Origin: an uncultured delta proteobacterium
GTDB taxonomy: Bacteria > Myxococcota > Myxococcia > Myxococcales > Myxococcaceae
Direction of reading: 5' to 3'
Length of the DNA: 64,000 bases
Assembly: GCA_963771175.1 (NCBI GenBank)
Contig: CAVYSY010000031.1
Span: 223,437-287,436, forward strand
Position numbers and translations under genes: made by a program. Below, in pieces: positions 45,248-58,778 of the stretch (positions are counted from its first letter, which is position 1; each line of letters opens with the position of its first letter). The notes beneath the pieces are model-generated. The model was not told the origin of the DNA and searched no databases. It saw nothing but the letters and a program-made list of their open reading frames with translations.

Positions 45248-47479
45248 ATGGATGCCCTCAAGCAGTTCTTCATGACCGCGCCGGTGGACCCCGCCGTCTT
45301 CGCGCAGTCACTGTGGCTCATCATCGCGCTGCCCCTGCTGGGCGCGTTCGTGTGTGGCGTGTTCGGCAAGATGCTCGGCCGCGCCAACGTGAACCTCATC
45401 GCCTCCGCGACGGTGGCCGGTTCCTTCGTGCTGTCCGTGCTGGCCTTCTGGTCGGTCAGCCACGTGTCGGGCGGCAGCCCGGTGTCGATCGACAACGCCT
45501 TCTCGACCGGCAGCATCCGCTACGCCATCGCCCATGACTATGGCACCTGGTTCAGCGCCGGCACGTTCCGGGTGAACTTCGGCCTGATGGTGGACCACCT
45601 GTCGGGGACGCTCCTGCTGGTCATCACCGGCGTGGGCTTCCTCATCCACCTGTACTCCACCAGCTACATGGAGCACGACGAGGCCTACTGGCGGTACTTC
45701 GCGTACCTCAACCTCTTCGTGGCCGCCATGCTCACGCTGGTGCTCGCCGACAACCTCGTCCTGCTCTTCGTGGGCTGGGAGGGCGTCGGTATGGCCAGCT
45801 ACCTGCTCATCGGCTTCTGGTACTCGGACGCGGCCAAGGCGTGGGCGGGCCGCAAGGCGTTCATCACCAACCGCATCGGTGACTTCGCCTTCCTCATCGC
45901 CACCTTCCTGGTGGTGATGCTGGTGAGCGCCTTCAACAGCCAGGCCAACCCGGGCAACTTCGCCCAGGTGGGTGGCAACGCCGAGTCCGTGCAGGTGCGC
46001 TTCCGCGACGGCCTGCAGCAGAAGGGCCCCGTGACCTTCCAGGGCCTGGAGGTCATGGCCAACGCGCTGCCCTCGGCGGAGGGCACGCAGGCCGCCGTCA
46101 CCCTGCAGAGCACCATCACGGACGGTCCGCTGGCGGGCCGCACCTTCGGTGGCGTGCTGACGGTGGCGCTGCTGCTGTTCCTGCTCGGCGCCGCGGGCAA
46201 GAGCGCCCAGTTCCCGCTGTACGTCTGGCTGCCGGACGCCATGGCCGGCCCGACGCCCGTCTCCGCCCTCATCCACGCGGCGACGATGGTCACCGCGGGC
46301 GTCTACCTCTTCGCCCGCATGAGCTACCTGCTGGTGATGAGCCCCACCGCCATGGTGACGGTGGCCATCATCGGTGCGCTCACCTCGCTGATCGCCGCGC
46401 TCATCGCCTTCGCGCAGGACGACATCAAGAAGGTGCTCGCCTACTCCACGGTGTCGCAGCTGGGCATCATGTTCATGGGCGTGGGCGCGGGCATCTTCTG
46501 GGCGGCGGTGCTGCACCTCGTCACCCACGCGTTCTTCAAGGCCTGCCTCTTCCTCGGCGCCGGCAGCGTCATGCACGGCAACGCGGACGAGACGGACATC
46601 AAGAAGCTGGGCGGCCTGCGTCACGAGATGAAGTGGACGTGGGGCACCTTCATGGTGGCCACCCTGGCCATCACCGGTATCGTCCCGCTCTCCGGCTTCT
46701 TCTCCAAGGACGCCATCTTCCACGGCGTGCACCACAACCACCTGCACGGCTTCGAGGGCGCCATGCACGCCCTGTACTACGTGGGCCTCCTCATCGCGGC
46801 GTGCACGGCCTTCTACATGTCGCGCGTGTACCTGCTGACCTTCGAGGGCAAGCGCTCGCCGGAGGCGAAGATTGCCCACGCGCACGAGAGCGCCTGGCAC
46901 ATGACGCTGCCGCTGGTGGTGCTGGCGGTGCTCAGCGTGGTGTCGCTGGTGTACGCGCTGCCGCTGATGCCGGGTCGCGCCGGCCCGCAGCCGGTGATGG
47001 AGAACTTCCTGGGCCCCGTGTTCGCGAGCGCCGAGCGCATCGCCGGGCGCGGCGAGCTGGTGAAGCTGGACCACAGCGTCCCGAGCATCGTGGACTACGT
47101 CTTCGCGTGGCTGGTGGCGCTGTCGGGCGGCGTGGCGGCGGCCTTCCTGTACATGAAGTACTTCCCCGCGCAGGTGGGCAAGCCGGTCCCGGCCTTCGCC
47201 CGCTCGGTGCAGCGCTTCACGCAGAACAAGTTCTACGTGGATGAGGCCTACGAGTTCCTGGTCATCCGGCCGGTGAAGAACGTGAGCGCCATCCTCTACA
47301 AGCTGGTGGACACGCTCCTCATCGACACGGTGGCGGTGCGCGGCACGGCGTGGGTGACCGCCCGCGTCGGCAGCGCCCTGCGCTACGTGCAGACGGGAGA
47401 CGCACAGGCCTATGCCGCGGTGATGGCCCTGGCCCTGCTCGGCGGCGCGGTGTACGCCCTCATCCAGGTGCTGCAATGA
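45248..47479 (+). CDS. nuoL: NADH-quinone oxidoreductase subunit L
   Basis: GWEGVG, NRIGD, GKSAQFPLYVWLPDAMAGPTPVSALIHAATMV, HAFFKACLF. Confidence 0.96.
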   Translation: MDALKQFFMTAPVDPAVFAQSLWLIIALPLLGAFVCGVFGKMLGRANVNLIASATVAGSFVLSVLAFWSVSHVSGGSPVSIDNAFSTGSIRYAIAHDYGTWFSAGTFRVNFGLMVDHLSGTLLLVITGVGFLIHLYSTSYMEHDEAYWRYFAYLNLFVAAMLTLVLADNLVLLFVGWEGVGMASYLLIGFWYSDAAKAWAGRKAFITNRIGDFAFLIATFLVVMLVSAFNSQANPGNFAQVGGNAESVQVRFRDGLQQKGPVTFQGLEVMANALPSAEGTQAAVTLQSTITDGPLAGRTFGGVLTVALLLFLLGAAGKSAQFPLYVWLPDAMAGPTPVSALIHAATMVTAGVYLFARMSYLLVMSPTAMVTVAIIGALTSLIAALIAFAQDDIKKVLAYSTVSQLGIMFMGVGAGIFWAAVLHLVTHAFFKACLFLGAGSVMHGNADETDIKKLGGLRHEMKWTWGTFMVATLAITGIVPLSGFFSKDAIFHGVHHNHLHGFEGAMHALYYVGLLIAACTAFYMSRVYLLTFEGKRSPEAKIAHAHESAWHMTLPLVVLAVLSVVSLVYALPLMPGRAGPQPVMENFLGPVFASAERIAGRGELVKLDHSVPSIVDYVFAWLVALSGGVAAAFLYMKYFPAQVGKPVPAFARSVQRFTQNKFYVDEAYEFLVIRPVKNVSAILYKLVDTLLIDTVAVRGTAWVTARVGSALRYVQTGDAQAYAAVMALALLGGAVYALIQVLQ

Positions 47480-49161
47480 GCTTCTTCGACAACCATCTGC
47501 TCAACCTCGTCATCTACCTGCCGCTCGTCTTCGCGGCGCTCGTGTGGATGCTGCCCGGCGGTGAGCGCGGGCAGATTCGCACCGTCACGTTCATCGGCAT
47601 GCTGGTGGACGCCGTCTTCGGGCTCTGGGCCTACCTGCGCTTCGAGCCGGGCGGCCCCGAGTTCCAGCTCGAGTACCGCGCGCGCTGGCTGGAGCAGCTC
47701 GGCGTCAGCTACCACATCGGCGTGGACGGCCTGGCCATCAGCCTGCTGCTGCTCACCGTCTTCCTGGGGCCCCTGGTGGTGATGGCCTCGCAGACGTACA
47801 TCACCGAGCGGGTGAAGGAGTTCCACCTCTCGCTGCTGGTGCTGCAGACGGTGATGATGGGCGCGCTGGTGTCCCTGGACGTGCTGCTCTTCTACGTCTT
47901 CTGGGAGGCCATGCTCATCCCCATGTACCTGCTGGTGGGTGTGTGGGGCGCCGAGGATCGCCAGATGGCGGCGGTGAAGTTCTTCCTCTACACCCTGGCG
48001 GGCTCGCTGCTGATGCTGGTGGCCATCGTCGCCCTGTACTTCATCAGCAGCACGCCGGGTCACCGCTCCTTCGACTACGCCACCATCTACAACAGCCTCA
48101 TCTCCGCCAACCGGGAGATGTCCGCGTGCATGGCCGCCGGTGACTGCTCGCAGCTCACGGGGCTGGCCAGCATGCTGCACCGCTGGGGCCCGTGGCTCTT
48201 CGCCGCCTTCGCCCTGGCCTTCGCCATCAAGGTGCCGATGTGGCCCGTGCACACGTGGTTGCCCGACGCCCACGTGCAGGCGCCCGTGGCCGGCTCCATG
48301 ATTCTGGCCGGCGTGATGCTGAAGATGGGCACCTTCGGCTTCTGGCGCTACGCGATTCCCTTCTTCCCGGTGGCGACGCAGCAGGCCCGGCCCTTCCTGT
48401 CCGCCCTGGCGGTGATTGGCATCGTCTACGGCGCGCTGATGTGCCTGGCGCAGCGAGACATCAAGAAGCTCATCGCCTACTCGTCGGTCAGCCACCTGGG
48501 CTACTGCATGCTGGGCATGCTGGCCCTCACCAACGAGGGCGCCACCGGTAGCGCCTACCAGATGCTCAACCACGGCGTGTCCACGGGCGCGCTGTTCCTC
48601 CTGTTCGGCTTCATCTACGAGCGGCGCCACACCCGCCTCATGTCCGACTACGGCGGCATCGCGCGGGTGATGCCGGTGTTCACGGCGGCCTTCGTCATCA
48701 TCACGTTCTCGTCCATCGCGGTGCCGGGCACCAACGGCTTCGTGGGCGAGTTCCTGGTGCTGCTGGGCACCTTCAAGAGCAACCTGGGCCTCGGCTTCGG
48801 CGTCCTGGCCACCCTGGGCGTCATCCTCGGCGCGGCGTACATGCTGTGGATGGTGCAGAAGGTGTTCTTCGGCCCCCTCACCCACCGTGAGAACCAGCAC
48901 CTGACGGACCTGAGCCTCCGCGAGTTCGCCACCGTGGCGCCCTTCCTCGTCCTCGTGGCGGTGATGGGCCTGATGCCCCAGCCCTTCCTGGACCGCATCA
49001 ACCCGTCCACCGAGCGTTTCATCAAGCGCGCCAGCGTGGGCGCTCCCGGCACCCAGCTGCAGCCCGCCGACGTGCAGATCTCCGTGATGGGGCTGCCCGC
49101 CGCCGACGTGGCCGCTGCCCCCACCGCCCAGCCGTCCGGCATGTTCGCCGACCGGCGCTAG
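47476..49161 (+). CDS. nuoM: NADH-quinone oxidoreductase subunit M
   Basis: FYVFWEAMLIP, KVPMWPVHTWLPDAH, LIAYSSVSH; ATGA overlap with nuoL. Confidence 0.96.
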   Translation: MSFFDNHLLNLVIYLPLVFAALVWMLPGGERGQIRTVTFIGMLVDAVFGLWAYLRFEPGGPEFQLEYRARWLEQLGVSYHIGVDGLAISLLLLTVFLGPLVVMASQTYITERVKEFHLSLLVLQTVMMGALVSLDVLLFYVFWEAMLIPMYLLVGVWGAEDRQMAAVKFFLYTLAGSLLMLVAIVALYFISSTPGHRSFDYATIYNSLISANREMSACMAAGDCSQLTGLASMLHRWGPWLFAAFALAFAIKVPMWPVHTWLPDAHVQAPVAGSMILAGVMLKMGTFGFWRYAIPFFPVATQQARPFLSALAVIGIVYGALMCLAQRDIKKLIAYSSVSHLGYCMLGMLALTNEGATGSAYQMLNHGVSTGALFLLFGFIYERRHTRLMSDYGGIARVMPVFTAAFVIITFSSIAVPGTNGFVGEFLVLLGTFKSNLGLGFGVLATLGVILGAAYMLWMVQKVFFGPLTHRENQHLTDLSLREFATVAPFLVLVAVMGLMPQPFLDRINPSTERFIKRASVGAPGTQLQPADVQISVMGLPAADVAAAPTAQPSGMFADRR

Positions 49162-49177
49162 TCGAGAGTCACCATCC

Positions 49178-50740
49178 ATGAACCTGCCTACCCTGACCTC
49201 GGCGGACTTCCTCCCGCTCATCCCCGCCATCATCCTGGTGGTGGGCGCGTGCGTCCTGCTGCTCTCGGAGGTGTTCCTCACTCCGAACTCGTCGCGCGGC
49301 TACCAGGCGGTGCTGGCGTCGGCCACGTCCATCATCGCCGGCCTCGTGTCCCTGGGGATTCTGTTCGAGCCGGCGCGCGAGGTGTTCCTCGGCTTCGGCG
49401 CGCTGGACCCCTTCTCCAGCTTCCTGACCTTCATCGTCTGCGTGGCGCTGGCGCTGGCGACGCTCACCTCGGCCGCCTTCCTGCGCAAGCGCGGCGCCGA
49501 GCGCGGTGAGTTCTACGCGCTGATGCTCTTCTCCGGCGCGGGCATGAGCCTGCTGGGCATGTCCAACGAGCTCATCACCGTCTTCGTCAACATCGAGATC
49601 CTCTCCCTCGCCACGTACGCGCTGACGTCCTTCCTGCGGCGCGGCACGCGGCCGAGCGAGGCGGGCTTCAAGTACTTCATCCTCGGCGCCTTCTCCTCGG
49701 CGATCCTGCTGTACGGCGCGGCGCTGCTGTACGGCGCCACCGGCACCACGCTGCTGTCGGACATGGTGCAGCCGCTGAGGAACGCGATGGGCACCAACAA
49801 CGCGCCGCTCGTCTACGTTGGCGCGGTGCTGGTGGCCGCCGGCTTCGCCTTCAAGGTGGCCGCGGTGCCCTTCCACATGTGGACGCCGGACGTGTACGAG
49901 GGCGCCCCCACCCCCGTCACCGCGCTGATGAGCGCGGGCGTGAAGGCCGCCGCCTTCGTCGCCCTGGTGCGCGTGTTCGTCACCGTGGGCAGCGGCATCG
50001 ACGCGAAGCTGCCCTTCGCCATCTTCTCCACCCTGGCGGTCCTCACCATGGTGGCGGGCAACCTGATGGCCCTCCCGCAGCGCAACGTGAAGCGCATGCT
50101 GGCCTACTCCTCCATCGCCCACGCCGGCTACCTGCTGCTGGGCGTGGCGGCCCTCTTCGCCACCCAGCCGGGCCAGGAGTTCCGCCTGCTCGGTCCCACC
50201 GCCCTGGTGGGCGCCAGCCCCGAGCTGGTGACGCGCGTCGAGGCCCTGCGCAGCATCCTCTTCTACCTGCTCGCCTACACCGTCACCGCGGTGGGTGCCT
50301 TCGGCATCATCTCCGTCCTGGAGCGCCGCGAGGACGAGGAGAAGGGCACCGCCTGGGACCTCGAGCGCTTCAGCGGTCTGGCCCAGCGCCGGCCGGGTTG
50401 GGCCTTCGCCATGGCCGCCTTCATGCTGTCGCTCGCCGGCATTCCGCCCACCGTCGGCTTCCTCGGAAAGCTGCTGCTCTTCCGCGCCGCGGTGGACGCG
50501 GGCCTCGTCGGCCTCACCATCATCGCGGTGCTCGCCAGCGCGGCCGGCGCCTATTACTACCTGCGCATCGTCGTCTACATGTACATGCGGCCCGTCCCCG
50601 AGGGCGCCCACGTCCTGGAGCGCAACTGGATGACGGAGGTGGCCCTCATCGTCTCCACCGTCGCCGTGGTGGTGCTGGGCATCATCCCCGGCCCCGTCGC
50701 CGAGTGGATCGCCCAGGCCGGCACCATCTTCAGCCGCTGA
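49178..50740 (+). CDS. nuoN: NADH-quinone oxidoreductase subunit N
   Basis: EAGFKYFILG, FKVAAVPFHMWTPDVYEGAP, KRMLAYSSIAHAGY. Confidence 0.96.
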   Translation: MNLPTLTSADFLPLIPAIILVVGACVLLLSEVFLTPNSSRGYQAVLASATSIIAGLVSLGILFEPAREVFLGFGALDPFSSFLTFIVCVALALATLTSAAFLRKRGAERGEFYALMLFSGAGMSLLGMSNELITVFVNIEILSLATYALTSFLRRGTRPSEAGFKYFILGAFSSAILLYGAALLYGATGTTLLSDMVQPLRNAMGTNNAPLVYVGAVLVAAGFAFKVAAVPFHMWTPDVYEGAPTPVTALMSAGVKAAAFVALVRVFVTVGSGIDAKLPFAIFSTLAVLTMVAGNLMALPQRNVKRMLAYSSIAHAGYLLLGVAALFATQPGQEFRLLGPTALVGASPELVTRVEALRSILFYLLAYTVTAVGAFGIISVLERREDEEKGTAWDLERFSGLAQRRPGWAFAMAAFMLSLAGIPPTVGFLGKLLLFRAAVDAGLVGLTIIAVLASAAGAYYYLRIVVYMYMRPVPEGAHVLERNWMTEVALIVSTVAVVVLGIIPGPVAEWIAQAGTIFSR

Positions 50741-50803: not shown

Positions 50804-51632
50804 CTACTCCGGCAGTGGCCCGCGCATCTCCAGCGTCTCCAGCACCAGCCGCGCTCCCGCCGCGCGCAGCAGCGCCTGCAGGGGCTCGTCTCCCGTCACC
50901 AGCCGCAGCTCCCGCGCGCTCCCCACCTCGAGGAAGGCCGCCTCCAGCAGGGCGCGCGCATGCGCGGGCGTGGCCGCGACGAGGGGGAACAGCAGGCCCT
51001 GGCTGGGGCCGCAGGTCCATCATCCCCAGCCGTCCCACGTCCGGCTGCTCCGGGTGCGCCAGGCGACGCAGCCGGTGCATGGACTGCGTGGCGTAGCTGG
51101 CCAGCTTCCCGGGCACCAGCCCGAAGGCCTCCGTGAACGGGGCGAAGTCCGCCTCGACCATCGGCACCACCTCGAGCTCCTCGGGGGCCAGCGGCAGGGT
51201 CGCCACGTGCTCGCGCGTCACGCACCATGTGCGCTCCAGCTTCCTCGGCTTCATCCCCAGCGAGGAGTACAGCGCCACCGCTGGCGCGTTGTCCGGCTTC
51301 ACGTATAGCCGCCACTGGCGACAGCCCCGCGCCCGCAGGAGCTCCGCGAGCCGCTCCATCACGAACCGCCCCAGGCCCAGCCCCCGCTGGCCTGGCGCCA
51401 CCACCACGGTCGACACATGGCCGGTGTCCCCCATCACGTCGATGAGGCCGAGCGCACGCGGACCCTCGGGCCCATCCACGAAGTACGAGTGCTTCACCAT
51501 GCCCGAGGCCCACACGTCCAGCGGAGGCGGTGGCTCCTCCAGGCCCAGCTCCCCGAAGAGCCGAACGAAGTCCGCGTGGTCCTCCACCCGCCCCGGCCGT
51601 AGCTGCCACGTCGCGCCGTGTGCGCCCCGCAT
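50804..51632 (-). CDS. GNAT-family acetyltransferase, one frameshift near 51000
   Basis: VVVAPGQRGLGLG acetyl-CoA motif, LYVKPDNAPAVALYSSLG. Confidence 0.85.
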
Positions 51633-51686: not shown

Positions 51687-51810
51687 TAAAAGAAGGCGGC
51701 CCGGCACCCTCAGGAAGGGGACCGGGCCGCAGGTTCTTCTCAAGAAGCCCACCGGAAGGGCTGAAGGGGTGGGGGGGAACCACTTCAGCCCTGCTTCGAC
51801 GTGCTCCGTG
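51687..51810 (-). ncRNA. pxr: Pxr-like sRNA, copy 1 (GNAT-proximal)
   Basis: GGGCUGAAG...CUUCAGCCC stem around a UUCCCCCCCACC loop; 3' GCGGCCCGG...CCGGGCCGC terminator with U run; sigma54 promoter upstream. 5' end estimated from promoter spacing; Pxr identity from recalled synteny. Confidence 0.8.
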
Positions 51811-51820
51811 TCTACTCTTT

Positions 51821-51836
51821 AGCACTTGCCATGCCA
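51821..51836 (-). promoter_or_regulatory. sigma54 -24/-12 promoter, copy 1
   Basis: TGGCATGGCAAGTGCT (GG-N10-GC) on the minus strand. Confidence 0.8.
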
Positions 51837-51911
51837 GCCCCAACGGCTCGTGTTTTCAGGTACTTGGCGCCAGGGGCGCTCCAGAAACCCCGCTCGGCTT
51901 TCAGCCCTGCA

Positions 51912-51944
51912 TTGCAGCCCTGAAATCGCCTTGCAGATGTGAAA
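51912..51944. promoter_or_regulatory. Paired enhancer-like sites, copy 1
   Basis: TTGCAGCCCTGAAA and TTGCAGATGTGAAA, 19 bp apart, about 80-110 bp upstream of the -24 element. Confidence 0.65.
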
Positions 51945-51977
51945 GGCACCGAGGAAGGAGCCTGAGGCGGAGGCCTG

Positions 51978-52102
51978 AAAAGAAGGCGGCCCGGTACCCT
52001 CAGGAAGGGGACCGGGCCGCGGGTTCTTCTCAAGAAGCTCACCGGAAGGGCTGAAGGGGTGGGGGGGAACCTCCTTCAACCTTGCTTCGACGTGCTCCGT
52101 AC
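51978..52102 (-). ncRNA. pxr: Pxr-like sRNA, copy 2
   Basis: Same architecture as copy 1; first stem arm is AGGUUGAAGG (G-U wobble), C7 loop and terminator retained. Confidence 0.78.
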
Positions 52103-52112
52103 CCTCTGGCTT

Positions 52113-52128
52113 AGCACTCACCGTGCCA
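52113..52128 (-). promoter_or_regulatory. sigma54 -24/-12 promoter, copy 2
   Basis: TGGCACGGTGAGTGCT. Confidence 0.82.
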
Positions 52129-52269
52129 GCCCCGACGGCTCGTGTTTTCAGGCACTTGACACCAGGGGCGCTCCGGAAACCCCGCTCGGCTTTCAGCCCT
52201 GCATTGCAGCCCTGAAATCGCCTTGCAGATGTGAAAGGCACCGGGGAAGGAGCCTGAGGCGGAGGCCTG

Positions 52270-52393
52270 AAAAGAAGGCGGCCCGGTACCCTCAGGAAGG
52301 GGACCGGGCCGCGGGTTCTTCTCAAGAAGCTCACCGGAAGGGCTGAAGGGGTGGGGGGGAACCACTTCAGCCTTGCTTCGACGTGCTCCGTAC
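52270..52393 (-). ncRNA. pxr: Pxr-like sRNA, copy 3
   Basis: Same stem, C7 loop and terminator architecture. Confidence 0.78.
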
Positions 52394-52403
52394 CCTCTGG
52401 CTT

Positions 52404-52419
52404 AGCACTCACCGTGCCA
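52404..52419 (-). promoter_or_regulatory. sigma54 -24/-12 promoter, copy 3
   Basis: TGGCACGGTGAGTGCT. Confidence 0.82.
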
Positions 52420-52566
52420 GCCCCGACGGCTCGTGTTTTCAGGCACTTGGCGCCAGGGGCGCTCCGGAAACCCCGCTCAACTTTCAGCCCTGCATTGCAG
52501 CCCTGAAATCGCCTTGCAGATCTGCAAAGCCGCCTGGCCAGCTCCATGTCCGCGAGCAGGAGCCCG

Positions 52567-52691
52567 AAAAGAAGGTGGCCCGGCCCCCTCAGAAAGGGGA
52601 CCGGGCCACGGGTTCTTCTCAAGGAAGCGCATCGGAAGAGCGAAGTGGTGGGGGGGAACCGCCTTCAGCCCTGCTTCGATGTGCTCCGTGC
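52567..52691 (-). ncRNA. pxr: Pxr-like sRNA, copy 4 (activator-proximal, diverged)
   Basis: C7 loop retained; terminator stem has a compensatory change (GUGGCCCGG/CCGGGCCAC); 3' arm of stem 1 is altered. Confidence 0.7.
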
Positions 52692-52701
52692 CCTAGGGAT
52701 T

Positions 52702-52717
52702 AGCATTCGCCATGCCA
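52702..52717 (-). promoter_or_regulatory. sigma54 -24/-12 promoter, copy 4
   Basis: TGGCATGGCGAATGCT. Confidence 0.8.
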
Positions 52718-52794
52718 GCTCCCCAAGAATCTCAGAACCCAGTAACTTCAAGTACTTAGCAGTTCAAATGGCCTCGCGAGGCCCCTTCCCCGCA

Positions 52795-52827
52795 TTGCAA
52801 CCCTGAAATCCCTTTGCAGATTTGAAA
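52795..52827. promoter_or_regulatory. Paired enhancer-like sites, copy 4
   Basis: TTGCAACCCTGAAA and TTGCAGATTTGAAA, conserved although the surrounding sequence has diverged. Confidence 0.65.
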
Positions 52828-52921
52828 ATCCGCAATGATTTCAAATGCTTCTGTTTTTCACGGCTGACGGGGCATTGCACATCCGCCCGGGTGTGAGCTG
52901 GGGGACAACTCCCGTACAGCC

Positions 52922-54360
52922 TCACTCCCGGTGATCGCCCCCGAGCGGACGGAGGTTGAGGCGCTTCATCTTCCGCCACAGCGTGGTGGAGGAGACGGCC
53001 AGCTCCTCGGCGACGCGGCCCAGGTCCATTCCGTGCCGCTCCAGGGATTGGGCAATCGCCCGCCGTTCGGCATCCTCCACCGACTCGGCCAGCGTGGGCA
53101 CCCGGGTGGAGGAGTCCGTGGGCGCGAGAGCGGGCGAGGCCTCCGCGGGGCCATTGGCCGCCATGCCCGTACTGGGGCGCACGGGGAAGTCCTCGGGCAG
53201 CAGCTCCTCCCCCTCGGACAGCGCCGCCGCCTGCTCCACCAGGTTCTCCAGCTCGCGCACGTTGCCGGGGAAGCTGTAGCCCATCAGGTGGTCCACCGCC
53301 GCCTGCGACAGACGCTTGGGCTTGGGGCTGCGGGCATTGGCGCGCTTGAGGAAGTGCTCGGCGAGCGCGGGCACGTCCTCCAGGCGCTCGCGCAGCGGCG
53401 GCACGCGCAGCGTCACCACGTTGAGCCGGTAGTAGAGGTCCTGCCGGAAGCGCTTCTCGCGCACCTCCACCTCGATGTCGCGGTTGGTGGCGGCGACGAT
53501 GCGCACGTCCACCTTCACGGTGGTGGACTCGCCCACGCGCCGCACCTCGCCCTCCTGCAGGGTGCGCAGCAGCTTGGACTGGAAGGCGGGGGCCGTCTCC
53601 GTCACCTCGTCGATGAAGAGGGTGCCGCCGTCCGCCTCCTCGACGAGGCCGCGGCGGGCCCGCACCGCGCCGGTGAAGGCGCCCTTGGCGTGGCCGAACA
53701 GCTCGCTCTCCAGCAGCGTCTCGGTGATGGCGGCGCAGTTGACGGGGACGAAGGGCTTGTCCTTGCGCCGGCTGTGCGCGTGCAGCGCGCGGGCGACGAG
53801 CTCCTTGCCCGTGCCGCTCTCGCCCTGCACCAGCACCGTGGCGTCGCTCTGCGCCACGCGCTGCAGGCGCTGCGTCAGCTCCTGCATGGCCGGGCTGCGG
53901 CCCACCAGCGCGGAGAGGCCGTGGCGCTCGTTGAACTCGTCGGCGAACAGGCCCACCTGCGACAGCAGCCGGGCCCGCTCCAACGCCGCGATCCACCCGG
54001 TAGAGCAGCTCGCCTATCCTTGAAGGGCTTGGTGACGTAGTCGAACGCCCCCTGGCGCATGGCCACCACCGCGCTCTCGATGGTGCCGAAGGCCGTCATC
54101 ATGATGACCTGGAGGCGCGGGGCTACCTCGAGCGCCTTCTTGAGGAGCGTGAGCCCGTCCATGGGCTCCATCTTCAGGTCCGTCAGCATCAGGTCCACCT
54201 CACCGCCCGACAGCATGGCGAGCGCCTCCTCTCCGGTGGCGGCCTCCTGGACGTGGTAGCCCTCGATGCGCAGGAGGAGCGCGGTGGAGGTGCGCATGTT
54301 GCGCTGGTCGTCCACGACCAGGATGCGGCCACGAGTGGAAGAAGTCGATGCGTCGTTCAC
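52922..54360 (-). CDS. NtrC-family sigma54-dependent response regulator (PxrR/Nla19-like), frameshift near 54000
   Basis: Receiver ILVVDDQ...TDLKM; AAA+ [37 protein letters not shown] and [10 protein letters not shown]; Fis-type HTH. Confidence 0.93.
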
Positions 54361-56863
54361 GGCGGGCTCGTCGGCTGGGTGAAGGGAAGACGGAAGGTAA
54401 AGGTGGTGCCACGCCCCGGGGCGCTCTCCAGGGCCAACTCCCCGTGGTGTTCCTCGATGATGCGCTTGACCACGGCGAGTCCCAACCCGGTGCCCTGGGC
54501 CTTGGTGGTGAAGAAGGGCTCGAAGACGCGGTGGACGAGCTCGGAGGGGACGCCACAGCCCTGGTCCGCCACGTCGATGCGCAGCAGCTCCCGGTCGCCG
54601 TGCACCTCGCGCCGGGCCTTCACCTGCACCAACCCGCCCCGTGGCATGGACTGCAGGGCGTTGAGGAGCACGTTGACGAGCACCTGGCGGATGAGGCGCC
54701 GATCCAGCGGCACCGGGGGCAGCTCCGGCTCCACCTCGGTGGAGAGGATGACGCGACCATCGCCGCCCTGCCAGGCCCGCGCGGCCTCCACCGCGTCCTG
54801 CAGCAGGCGGGGGATGTCCTCGGCGTGCAGGATGGGCTCGCGCGGGCGGGTGAAGTCCAGCAGGTCGCCCACCATGCGGTTGAGCCGGTCGCTCTCCTCC
54901 GCGAGGATGTCCAGCAGCATGGCCGGGTCACCCTCGGGCTTGAGCATGCGGCGCAGCGAGGCCACCGCGTTGAAGATGACGCCCAGGGGGTTGCGCACCT
55001 CGTGGGCCACGATGGCCGACAGCTCGCCGAGCGCGGCCAGGCGCTCGCGCTTGACCATCTCCGCGCGCGCGGCGGCCAGCTCCGCGTAGGAGGCCCAGAG
55101 CGACTCGTAGAGGCGAGCGTTGGCGATGGCCAGGGAAATCTGTCCGCACGTGGCCTCGGCCAGCTCGATGAAGGAGGGACTGAAGACGCGCGGGCGGCGG
55201 GTGTCGTCCAGCAACACCACGCCGATGAGCTCCTCGCGAGAGGTGAGCGGCAGCGCCAGCAGGGCCTTCTCGTCGAAGCGGCGGACGAGCTCGCGCTGCT
55301 CCATGCCCTCGACCTTCGACAGGTCCGCCATGGCGATGGGCCGACGCTCGCGGGCCACGCGCGCGACGATGCTGCCGGGGTCATCCACCGGAATCACCAC
55401 GGAGCGGAAGAAGTCGCGGTGGGTGGCGGAGGCGGCGGAGCCGCGCAGGACACCGGCCTGCTCGTCGTGCAGGAGGATGAAGCAGTTGGAGACGTCCAGC
55501 AGCTTGACGAGGAAGTCCGAGGCCACGTCCAGGATGCTGGCCACATCCAGGGTGGCGGTGGTGGTGCGGGCCAGGTCCAGCAACAGGCGCGTGTCGGCGA
55601 GCTGCCGGGAGGACTCGGCGCGCAGGCGGCGCTGGTCGAGCAGCGTCATCAGCAGCTCGGACAGCGGGCCCAACAGCCGCAGGTCCGCCCCGTTGAAGGG
55701 GCGCCCCGGGGAACGCACCACCTGGAGGAGGCCCCAGGGATGGCCGCCCTGGGACAGGCGCATCGCCGCGCCACAGCCCAGGCGCCCGCCGGTGGCCCGC
55801 AGCAGCGCGACCTCCTCGGCCTCGGTGGAGAGCACCGCGCCCCGGGCCGCCGCCAGGGAGGGCCGCCAGGGGCGCGGCGAGCCCCGCGCTCAGGTCTCCG
55901 TCCAGGCCCACGTGGGCCGAGAGGACCAGCTCGCCCTCGGGTGATTCGGAGGTGTACAGCAGCACGGCCTCCGCGCCGAACAGCGTGGCCAGACGCGCGA
56001 GGAAGTCCTCGGGCGAGGGCGGCTCCGGTTGGGCCACGAAGCGCGCCGACTCGGCCACGGCCACCATCTCCCAGCGGCCCCGCTCCACATCCGCCAGCAG
56101 CCGCGCGTCGGTGAGGGCCGCCCCCACCACCTTGGCGAAGAGCGCCAGCACCGAGCCATACGAGGGCGACAGCCCCGAGCCCTCCACCCACAGCACCTCC
56201 GACACCGTGGTGCAGAGCGGCAGGTAGACGTGCGTGGAATCGTGGCCCGGCAGGGAGCCGAAGGCGGGCCGTCCCTCGGAGAGCGCCCGCAGGCCCAGCG
56301 CCGCGTCCTCCGGCGGCGGGGCCCCGTCTCGAGTCGTGAAGCCCTCGCCGTCTCGCCACAGGAAGCGCGCGGACAGGCCCACCTGGGTGAGGCCCGCGAG
56401 GGACACCCGCCGCACCGCCTCCTCCGAGCGCGCCGCGACGAGCTCCGCGGACGTCTCCACCAGTCGCTCGGCCGTCTCCAGTTCCGCCGGCCGCGCCCCC
56501 AGCACCAGGCAGTTGATGAGGAGCCCCCAGCCGCCCTCTTCCAGCTCCACCTCCTGCACGTGGACCGCCACCTCGCGCACGCCCCGGTTCGGAGTGGACG
56601 GCAGCAGGTAGCGCCGCGGGCCCGGCTCCTTCAGCGTGCCCTCCTCCCGCTGGCGGTGACGCGCCATCAGCCGCACCCGGTCCTCCGGGTGGACGAAGTC
56701 CCACATGAGGCGCCCTTCCACCTGCGCCCGGTCCAGCCCCAGCATGTCGAGGTAGGCCTCGTTCGCCGCCCACACCCGGCCCTCCCGGGCCACGTACATG
56801 GGGTTGCCGAAGGACTCGATGAGGGACCGCAGGGCGGCCTCGCTGTAACGCTTCTGTCGTCAT
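54357..56863 (-). CDS. PAS/GAF sensor histidine kinase (PxrK-like), frameshifted
   Basis: N-terminal PAS (WDFVHPEDR), GAF, H-box VAHEVRNPL, NVLLNALQ, FFTTKAQGTGLGL. Overlaps the selB stop and the regulator start. Confidence 0.88.
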
Positions 56864-58778
56864 GCGCGCCGCAGCACCCGCTTCTCTCCGACCCGGAGCG
56901 TCACCTTCTCCCGGTCGAAGTACTCCGAGAGAGGAATGACGAACTTCCGGCTCTGCCCCACCATCTCCTTGAAGGCCTGGGTGGAAATCTCCTTCTTCTC
57001 GCGCAGGTGGGCAACCAGCCGCTCCTTGAGCCCGGCCAGCGCACCCGCGTCGAAGAACAGCTCCTCGCTCACCCGCACCACCCGCCCCTCGGCCACCGCC
57101 GACCTTCAACAGCTCCTGCACGCGCGCCGCTGGCAGATGGAGCCGCTGTGCCAGCTCGTTGAGGGTGGGAGGCGCGAGGCCCGCGCCCAGGAGGTCTGCC
57201 ACCAGCCGTGCTCGCGCCGCCTCCTCGTCCAGGGTGAGCGTCCGGCCTCGCCCCTTGAGGCGCACCACCTCCTTCTCCACCTCCACCTTCCCCGCCTCCC
57301 CCAGCGCCTGCACCACCCGGGCGAAGGCGCGCGCATCCAGCTCGCCCGACAGGCGCTGGCGCAGCTCCTCGCGCGAGAGGCCCTCGCGCAGCGGCTCGCG
57401 CTCGTGGAAGGCGGCCAGCAGCGCCAGGGCGCGCGCCTGCAGTCCCTCGAACACCTCGCCCGAGAGGTACAGCCGCCGCTCGCGGTCCACCAGCAGCGCC
57501 GCGCCGCGCGAGCCCAGCAGCTCCAGCGCGCGGGAGAGCACCTTGGGCGCCAGCGCCGAGCGCGCGAAGAGCTCGGCCTGGGTGAGGCCACGGTAGCCCG
57601 CCTGCCGCAGCAGCCACGCCACCATGCCGTTGGCGTCCGCCTCCAGCAGCGGGGCCACCACCTCGGAGCCGCCCTTGCGCCGACGCGGCGGGGTGATGGA
57701 CAGCACGCGCCCACCGGCCAGCGTGGCGCCCCGGCCCGGCAGCGCGCGCGAGCCCCGGAGGATGAAGCGCTGGCCCGGCAGCGCGGCCATCGGCTCGGAG
57801 AGGCGGAGCTGCGCGAGCGCCGTCTCCCCCGGCTCCAGCTTCTCCAAATCCAGCAGCGCCACCGTGGCCTCCACCTGCGCGGTGCCCAGGTGCAGCAACA
57901 GCTTGCGGCGCTGGGGCAGCGCCACCTCGACCGCGGGCAGCAGGCTCAGCTCCACGTCCAGCATGTGCGTCTCGGGCACCTCGCCCGCCTTCACCAGCAC
58001 CATGCCGCGCGCGATGGCCTCGGGCTCCACGCCCGTCAGGTTCACCGCGGTGCGCTGGCCCGCCGACACCTTCTGCACCGCCTCGCCGTGCATCTGCAGC
58101 CCGCGCACGCGAAACGGGCCGGGCAGGCCCGGCAGCAGGGACACGGCGTCCTCCACCGCGAAGGTGCCGGACAGCAGCGTGCCCGTCACCACCGTGCCGA
58201 AGCCCTTGATGGTGAAGGCCCTATCCACCGGGAGGAACGCGGGGCCCTCCGAGGGACGCGTGGGCAGTCCCTTCGCGGCCCGGGTGAGCGCGGCGCGCAG
58301 CTCGTCCAGCCCCTCCCCCGTCTTCGAGGACACGGGCACCACCGGCGCGCCCTCCAGGAAGGTGCCGGCCACCAGCGCGCCCAGGTCCGCCTCCACCAGC
58401 GCGACGCCACTCCGCGCCCAGCTCCGCGAGCAGGTCCGACTTGGTGAGCGCGATGACGCCGGCCTTCACGCCGAGCAGCCGGCAGATGTCCAGGTGCTCG
58501 CGCGTCTGGGGCATCACGCCCTCGTCCGCCGCCACCACCAGCACCGCCAGGTCCACCCCGCCGGCGCCCGCCACCATCGCCTTGACGAAGCGCTCGTGCC
58601 CGGGCACGTCCACCACGCCCGCCACCGTGCCATCGTCCAACTGGAGGTGGGCGAAACCCAGCTCCAGGGTGATGCCCCGGCGCTTCTCCTCCTTCAGCCT
58701 GTCGGTGTCGATACCGGTGAGCGCCTTGACCAGTGACGTCTTGCCGTGATCGATGTGCCCCGCGGTACCGATGATCAT
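56860..58778 (-). CDS. selB: Selenocysteine-specific elongation factor, frameshifted
   Basis: [51 protein letters not shown]-terminal winged helix [13 protein letters not shown]. Confidence 0.95.

Follow-up and report, generated by a model that had tools for sequence, protein, structure and literature searches.

The 64-kb stretch of DNA analysed here (the window) comes from a genome of Archangium, formerly Cystobacter, and holds a tandem array of small RNA (sRNA) genes of the Pxr family. Pxr represses fruiting-body development in myxobacteria while nutrients are abundant and occurs in two forms, Pxr-L and Pxr-S. The array consists of four minus-strand units that run head to tail from 52830 down to 51688, between the genes for a histidine kinase and an NtrC-type sigma-54 activator on one side and a GNAT acetyltransferase gene on the other (Table 1). 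There is, in our assessment, little doubt that these are four complete and independently promoted Pxr genes.

The repeat had been recognized in an earlier reading made from the letters alone (the sequence-only reading), which counted four units with periods of 290, 292 and 297 bp, proposed that they were Pxr genes and named a search with the Rfam Pxr model as a check. We ran this search with cmscan over the whole window. Four matches reached the gathering score of any family, and all four were to Pxr (RF01812; curated gathering score, 80 bits), with scores of 81.3–99.3 bits and E values from 1.7e-12 to 2e-16. Each match was full length (model positions 1–109 of 109), and the RNA 3′ ends were spaced by exactly the three periods that had been read. 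Tandem Repeats Finder called a single array (51688–52719; period 292, 3.5 copies, 90% matches, score 1584), which leaves out the more diverged upstream half of unit 1. These four were the only Pxr matches in the 9.83-Mb genome (58 contigs), and the same search of 14 control genomes returned none. Five open reading frames of 86–267 amino acids overlap the array; none had a Pfam match at E ≤ 0.01, in line with the earlier judgement that no credible reading frame explains the repeat.

All four units share one anatomy. Read 5′ to 3′ on the minus strand, an enhancer-like block is followed by a spacer, a promoter, the RNA and a GC-rich hairpin with UUUU. The block, of about 46 nucleotides (nt), contains three dyad-like sites: TT[T/G]CA-N4-TGCAA, TTTCA-N4-TGCAA and ATGCA-N4-TGAAA. 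The sequence-only reading had described paired TTGCA-N4-TG(A/C)AA sites; dyad-like sites are indeed present in each unit, but there are three of them rather than a simple pair. We presume that the block is the binding site of the NtrC-type activator. A profile built from the blocks of 51 Archangium units matched the 9.8-Mb genome four times, always in the array (E 7e-12 to 2e-15; next match, E = 0.81). Because this genome-wide profile search found no further enhancer-block sites, no wider PxrR regulon can be proposed.

A variable spacer of about 65 nt separates the block from the promoter, TGGCA(C/T)-N6-TGCTA, which provides the −24 GG and −12 GC of a sigma-54 promoter in every unit, as had been read (GG-N10-GC). 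All four occurrences of TGGCAY-N6-TGCTA in the window lie in the array, where 100 shuffles gave an expectation of 0.01, and the genome encodes an rpoN-type protein (Sigma54_DBD, 224 bits). The geometry of the promoter predicts that transcription starts about 12 nt past the −12 GC, at approximately 52691, 52393, 52102 and 51810. These positions are about 14 nt upstream of the Rfam 5′ ends, and primary transcripts would thus be about 123 nt long, close to the 120 nt of the sequence-only reading. Two other features that it had described, a stem around an invariant tract of seven C (C7) and a GC-rich terminator with a U run, were also present: UUCCCCCCCA lies in a hairpin loop in each of the four RNAs, and UUUU comes after the GC-rich stem at their 3′ ends.

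Table 1. Features of the array and its neighbours in the window. MFE, minimum free energy; z, position relative to the RNA's own shuffles; bits, score against the Rfam Pxr model.
Feature	Position	Strand	Basis	Scores
Unit 1 enhancer-like block	52784..52828	-	Profile match; presumed sites for NtrC-type activator	
Unit 1 sigma-54 promoter, TGGCATGGCGAATGCTA (−24 GG, −12 GC)	52701..52717	-	Motif search	
Unit 1 Pxr RNA (pxrR-adjacent copy)	52567..52690	-	Rfam 52567-52676 plus predicted leader of ~14 nt	81.3 bits, E=1.7e-12; MFE -65.8 kcal/mol, z=-5.6
Unit 2 enhancer-like block	52482..52528	-	Profile match	
Unit 2 sigma-54 promoter	52403..52419	-	Motif search	
Unit 2 Pxr RNA	52270..52392	-	Rfam 52270-52378 plus leader	91.9 bits; MFE -62.0 kcal/mol, z=-6.3
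Unit 3 enhancer-like block	52191..52236	-	Profile match	
Unit 3 sigma-54 promoter	52112..52128	-	Motif search	
Unit 3 Pxr RNA	51978..52101	-	Rfam 51978-52087 plus leader	99.3 bits; MFE -63.0 kcal/mol, z=-5.7
Unit 4 enhancer-like block	51899..51944	-	Profile match	
Unit 4 sigma-54 promoter	51820..51836	-	Motif search	
Unit 4 Pxr RNA (last copy)	51688..51810	-	Rfam 51688-51796 plus leader	85.2 bits; MFE -66.4 kcal/mol, z=-5.6
Predicted leader stretches	51797-51810, 52088-52101, 52379-52392, 52677-52690	-		
pxrR-like NtrC-type sigma-54 activator	52922..54360	-	Pfam	
pxrK-like histidine kinase (GAF, HisKA, HATPase_c)	54357..55835	-	Pfam	
pxrA-like GNAT acetyltransferase	50804..51632	-	PF00583	E=3.9e-12
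Two convergent NADH:quinone oxidoreductase / Mrp antiporter-type membrane subunit genes	47350-49161, 49178-50740	+	PF00361	

Conservation followed this anatomy. Among 51 units from 12 Archangium genomes, TGGCA, TGCTA, most of the enhancer block, the loop and the terminator were invariant or nearly so, and the spacers varied. Within the window, unit 1 was 75% identical to units 2–4 in the enhancer block, 82–88% in the promoter, 86–93% in the leader and 80–83% in the RNA body, against 21–40% in the spacers, a contrast that fits the earlier proposal that whole transcription units had been amplified. Among themselves, units 2–4 agreed at 92–100% in four segments: enhancer block, enhancer-to-promoter spacer, leader and RNA body. 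Unit 4 departed from units 2 and 3 in the promoter and the following 10 nt, where it was only 40–82% like them.

To describe the RNA structure we used an alignment of 54 sequences (48 of them distinct) from Archangium and outgroups, in which the UUCCCCCCCA loop was invariant throughout. A three-helix structure had 96.9% of its cells paired, compared with 35–54% in slid-partner controls, and in nine pairs both partners had changed, a count that none of 500 shuffles reached (shuffled mean, 2.8); kinship among the aligned sequences inflates both the pairing and the covariation figures. The RNAs of the window fold 5.6–6.3 standard deviations below their own shuffles. In the core of stem-loop 3 (SL3), GCGGCCCG pairs with CGGGCCGC in units 2–4, and in unit 1 GUGGCCCG pairs with CGGGCCAC, so that both sides have changed and the pairing has been kept. 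We take these pairs to be the published conserved 8-bp core.

The copies fall into two groups. When 55 units were placed in a maximum-likelihood tree, all 39 Archangium copies other than the first formed one clade (support 100/99), and the 12 first copies, those next to pxrR, lay outside it. Unit 1 of the window grouped with eight other first copies (97/87), and units 2–4 fell together, weakly (83/57). When a long-branch row (G022) was dropped and units from other genera were added, a branch supported at 99/99 split 14 first copies and three single-copy outgroups from all distal copies. These 14 comprise 12 from Archangium and two from a second genus, g37, the latter flagged as long branches; the rows of G024 and G085 are also long, and unit numbering there is arbitrary. 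The last copies within a genome were often identical or nearly so. The history thus consists of a single old duplication and, after it, duplication or gene conversion within separate lineages. Two closed genomes, G008 and G015, contain a duplicated two-unit block (unit 2 matches unit 4 and unit 3 matches unit 5), which points to unequal crossing-over acting on two units at a time.

Pxr is widespread in the family, and arrays are found in more than one genus. In an even sample of the GTDB family, which takes in one genome flagged as unpublished (G081), 71 of 81 genomes and 45 of 51 genera had a Pxr match at E ≤ 0.001, with 20 genomes over the cut-off. Genus g37 has tandem arrays of seven units about 325 bp apart (G092, 1698204–1700263) and of five units (G054; G110, 1721317–1722725). 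In these arrays, too, the first copy is diverged and the distal copies after it are almost identical to one another, and each unit has its own enhancer block, sigma-54 promoter and terminator. Two adjacent Pxr matches were present in G024 (genus g8) and in G085 and G104 (genus g6).

Between the predicted sigma-54 start and the annotated 5′ end of Pxr lies a conserved leader of about 14 nt, (C/U)ACGGAGCAC(G/A)UCG. It is complementary to the stretch annotated as stem-loop 2 (SL2), and both RNAfold and RNAalifold pair the two, extending stem-loop 1 (SL1) into a long helix. The leader helix has eight pairs, which are 100% paired in the 48 distinct sequences. Two adjacent pairs swap from A-U/G-C to G-C/A-U between Archangium and the three single-copy outgroups, probably in a single evolutionary event, and three further pairs vary on one side only. 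Genus g37 speaks against the helix: judged by eye, it clearly keeps only the outer GGAGC/GCUUC, and the inner register is not kept. Chimeras in which the M. xanthus leader was fused to Cystobacter RNA bodies also bear on it. One of the three paralogs worked (PMC5568312), and because it did so despite a leader helix that would be mismatched in all three, the helix was not essential in that assay. We regard the predicted leader helix as a lead rather than a finding, and it offers a testable idea on Pxr processing.

A two-class system would bring several of these observations together. The first Pxr appears to be orthologous in Archangium and the second genus and to group with the single-copy Pxr of other genera. 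The distal Pxr would have a copy number of two to six, set by unequal crossing-over, and would be uniform within each genome, so that the array would not be a matter of simple dosage. In the same reading the primary sigma-54 transcript would begin at the predicted site, with a leader of about 14 nt ahead of the annotated RNA. The two classes would differ in targets or kinetics, and removal of the leader or loss of its helix could belong to the maturation of Pxr-L to Pxr-S that controls activity. We hold this reading as a whole tentatively and think that it may well prove wrong. The sequence-only reading had offered dosage control or sub-functionalisation as the outcome of amplification, and either may apply to the array.

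Alternatively, only some of the copies might be working Pxr genes, with unit 1 or the redundant distal copies being decaying duplicates that have no role. Unit 1 does have the lowest score, barely over the cut-off and with several non-standard pairs, and copy number ranges from 4 to 7 among genomes. Nevertheless, promoter, enhancer block, C7 loop and terminator have been kept in all four units while the spacers diverged, and unit 1 shows the compensated SL3 core described above. A contig of a public sequencing run (X1; our read-level evidence consisted of Logan contigs of the public runs X1, X2, X15 and X16) has no insertion or deletion in the RNA body of unit 1. The first-copy class, moreover, is retained beside pxrR in all 12 aligned Archangium genomes and in two genomes of the second genus, which argues for long-term selection. 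We consider decay of some copies improbable.

The genes around the array match those of known pxr loci. The activator gene encodes REC (53875–54360) and, in different frames, Sigma54_activat, AAA_lid_14 and HTH_8 (52922–53983), and comparison with a closed relative suggests that the pxrK-like gene extends to about 56862. Together with the GNAT gene downstream, this kinase–activator pair bears out the flanks assigned by the sequence-only reading. The order of kinase, NtrC-type activator, array, GNAT and NADH dehydrogenase-type genes is the published order pxrK–pxrR–pxr–pxrA, with the same neighbour on the far side: pxrR and pxrK lie beside pxr (PMC5684412, PMC10217877), pxrA is MXAN_1079 (PMC11928866) and an NADH dehydrogenase gene adjoins pxr (PMC5568312). 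The position of pxr that had been stated, after nla19/pxrR and before the GNAT gene MXAN_1079/pxrA, is likewise the one in the literature (PMC11928866, PMC5684412). Upstream of the kinase lies a selB-like gene with SelB winged-helix, beta-barrel and EF-Tu domain 2 matches (55649–58396, minus strand).

Several of these genes have broken frames in this assembly. Two 1-nt insertions, near 53986 and 54014–54016, split the pxrR-like frame, and both are absent from all 11 same-genus relatives. The kinase frame breaks near 55870 and 56855 relative to a closed relative (G006), the GNAT frame breaks near 51005, and single-base insertions relative to the 11 relatives interrupt the selB-like gene. If activator and kinase were truly frameshifted, this strain would carry an intact array that is not expressed, and Pxr control would have been lost naturally. 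The absence of the pxrR insertions from the 11 relatives and the further breaks in kinase and GNAT would agree with such a loss, as would the adjacent nuo-type genes, where 5.5 kb contain only one such indel, located between the two genes. Yet the 35.3 kb covered by both of two closed relatives contain 55 window-specific indels outside the array that are not multiples of three (coding and non-coding DNA pooled), mostly 1-nt insertions, and the genome, in 58 contigs, is 81.7% complete, which is the pattern of an error-rich assembly. In addition, the X1 contig lacks both pxrR insertions. It has 15–18 differing letters per 400–1200 bases, making it about 1–4% different from the window, and it thus comes from a near but different strain. 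Because the indels are window-wide, completeness is low and the X1 contig is free of the pxrR insertions, we consider it very likely that the broken pxrR, pxrK and GNAT frames are assembly errors, and natural loss of Pxr control correspondingly unlikely. The same caution about errors applies to single-base differences among the four RNA copies.

The indels lie within 28800–63900, with examples at 53986, 54016, 56855 and 57101, and suggest an unpolished assembly. A suspected frameshift in the nuo-type gene at 49178–50740, which has two Pfam stretches, was rejected: the 519-amino-acid product of the closed relative aligns in one frame.

Within the genus, 16 of 17 other genomes had Pxr matches, and the seventeenth is 73% complete. 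All seven assemblies in one or two contigs had four (G004, G006, G016 and G017) or five (G001, G008 and G015) tandem matches, and a profile search of 11 fetched Archangium loci found 4–5 units in each, with periods of about 290–340 bp. Fragmented drafts (G010 and G013) had fewer matches, located at contig ends, as expected of a collapsed repeat. The short-read contigs of both X1 and X2 end inside the array and so give no unit count; those of X1 leave 51935–52108 uncovered. A joint in one X2 contig leads back by 583 bases, or about two periods, as a tandem array should produce. Although the assembly is of draft quality and units 2 and 3 are 93–100% identical in every segment except a short spacer 5′ of the enhancer block, it is very unlikely that the count of four is an artefact of a collapsed or inflated repeat, because the closed genomes of the genus carry 4–5 tandem copies in the same place with the same periods, and in the window every unit differs from its neighbours, unit 1 strongly.

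Runs X15 and X16, from RNA, mostly cover the conserved AAA+ part of pxrR, with depth peaks at 53.2–53.8 kb, a coverage that probably derives from many organisms. The contigs of all four runs show neither transcription nor habitat.

We also examined the association of pxr with the GNAT gene, whose ATG lies at 51632, 55 nt after the last Pxr unit. Its first 209 residues, up to the frame break, matched proteins in six genomes of four other genera with 49–55% identity over about 200 of the 209 residues, and in one Archangium genome with 81%. In all eight genomes with such matches, the window's own included, the GNAT gene lies 25–80 nt downstream of pxr on the same strand, and in the other genera this pxr is a single copy. 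Weaker matches (29–43% identity) did not adjoin pxr. Among the 11 fetched Archangium relatives, the gene was full length in five, fragmentary in two and absent in four. The closed 9.0-Mb genome G080 has a 262-nt pxrR–pxr gap and a 108-nt pxr, exactly the values given for M. xanthus (PMC5568312), and its GNAT may accordingly be MXAN_1079. In PMC11928866, PxrA homologues are said to be confined to a few Myxococcus species and pxrA to be younger than pxr. Our matches suggest that the pxr–GNAT linkage is older than this published view, with repeated loss. Pairing of the C7 loop with the ribosome-binding site of the GNAT gene (GGAGGAGGGGG before the start codon) was considered and rejected, the G-rich site not being conserved in four loci of other genera (G080, G100, G060 and G055).

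Homology with the M. xanthus system suggests how the locus would work. The pxrK-like GAF histidine kinase would control the adjacent pxrR-like activator, which would act through the three-dyad enhancer block of each unit, and the sigma-54 −24/−12 promoter would drive transcription of each RNA of about 123 nt. In each RNA a long first stem-loop exposes the UUCCCCCCCA loop, which is invariant, and the GC-rich hairpin, ending in a U run, would serve as terminator; processing, too, is expected by analogy. Most likely, the Pxr RNAs keep cells from starting fruiting-body development as long as nutrients are in good supply. The C-rich loop is probably the functional element. The inactivating mutation that the sequence-only reading had placed in a C run is given more precisely in the literature: the fifth base of the SL1 loop is changed from C to A (PMC5684412). 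With several copies, Pxr output would be larger or more diverse. The array itself arose by duplication of whole units. The pxrR-adjacent copy is of an old class, which also takes in the single-copy Pxr of other genera, and units 2–4 are of a derived class kept similar within the genome by recent duplication or gene conversion.

Some observations weigh against the interpretation of the array as four working Pxr genes. None of the four copies forms the short hairpin that the Rfam model has as SL2, where cmscan reported non-standard pairs, and unit 1 shows extra SL1 mismatches. Because the published Cystobacter paralogs Cb.1 and Cb.3 are also reported without SL2 (PMC5568312), its absence does not exclude membership of the family. 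Cystobacter paralogs occupy three positions, Cb.1–3, and only the second blocked M. xanthus development (PMC5568312), so family membership does not guarantee the same function for each copy. The frame breaks in pxrR, pxrK and GNAT, if real, would leave the array without its activator. Finally, the signal in RNA libraries amounts to one 316-nt contig of a biocrust metatranscriptome (X15, depth about 7) that covers 51696–51840 in unit 4, including the promoter, with 9 differences and 2 gaps; it may represent the Pxr RNA of a relative, read-through or DNA.

The array can be compared with several known systems. With M. xanthus Pxr it shares the UUCCCCCCCA loop that holds the inactivating site, the GC-rich SL3/terminator, the sigma-54 promoter and the position after pxrK/pxrR, before the GNAT gene and beside an NADH dehydrogenase-type gene (PMC5684412, PMC5568312, PMC11928866). 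It differs in having four copies instead of one and in not forming SL2, and its units are about 20% diverged from the consensus of the Pxr model. The Cystobacter arrays (PMC5568312) belong to the same clade, Archangium including Archangium violaceum Cb vi76. The tandem paralogs that the sequence-only reading had mentioned are described there for C. minor and C. violaceus, between nla19/pxrR and an NADH dehydrogenase gene, each with its own sigma-54 promoter and some without SL2. Against the three positions published for Cystobacter stand four units in the window and 4–5 in closed genomes of the genus. In several genomes the last two units are identical or nearly so, which might explain a count of three based on the polymerase chain reaction.

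More distant parallels exist among other sRNAs. The Qrr1-4/5 genes of Vibrio are each driven by sigma-54 and an NtrC-type regulator (LuxO) and gate population-level behaviour; they are dispersed and Hfq-dependent. PrrF1 and PrrF2 of P. aeruginosa are two copies with Fur-repressed sigma-70 promoters. Qrr RNAs are unrelated to Pxr in sequence and structure and are not of the same family, and the Pxr units are in tandem; the PrrF RNA is likewise unrelated. The likeness is one of outline. As several sRNA paralogs, the Qrr set has been compared to Pxr in PMC5568312, where PrrF1/PrrF2 are cited as tandem duplicated sRNA genes with their own promoters, and M. xanthus is stated to lack hfq (PMC5684412).

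The Pxr family, its regulators, the sigma-54 promoters of individual paralogs and the tandem arrangement in Cystobacter have already been published, and the window provides a further example. In the literature available to us, which includes the 2014 Cystobacter paper only as described in PMC5568312, we found no report of at least four tandem pxr copies or of pxr in Archangium. Our additions are modest: arrays of 4–7 copies in two genera, two classes of copy, linkage of pxr to a pxrA-like GNAT gene across five genera and a predicted leader helix.

Pxr is among the few bacterial sRNAs known to control a decision in a multicellular life cycle. With 4–7 units in at least two genera, the arrays described here exceed the three published paralogs in both size and distribution. 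With positional homologues of pxrA in Archangium and other genera, the pairing of pxr with pxrA may predate what has been proposed. The coexistence of an old copy with a set of homogenised copies constitutes a natural design for deletion and swap experiments.

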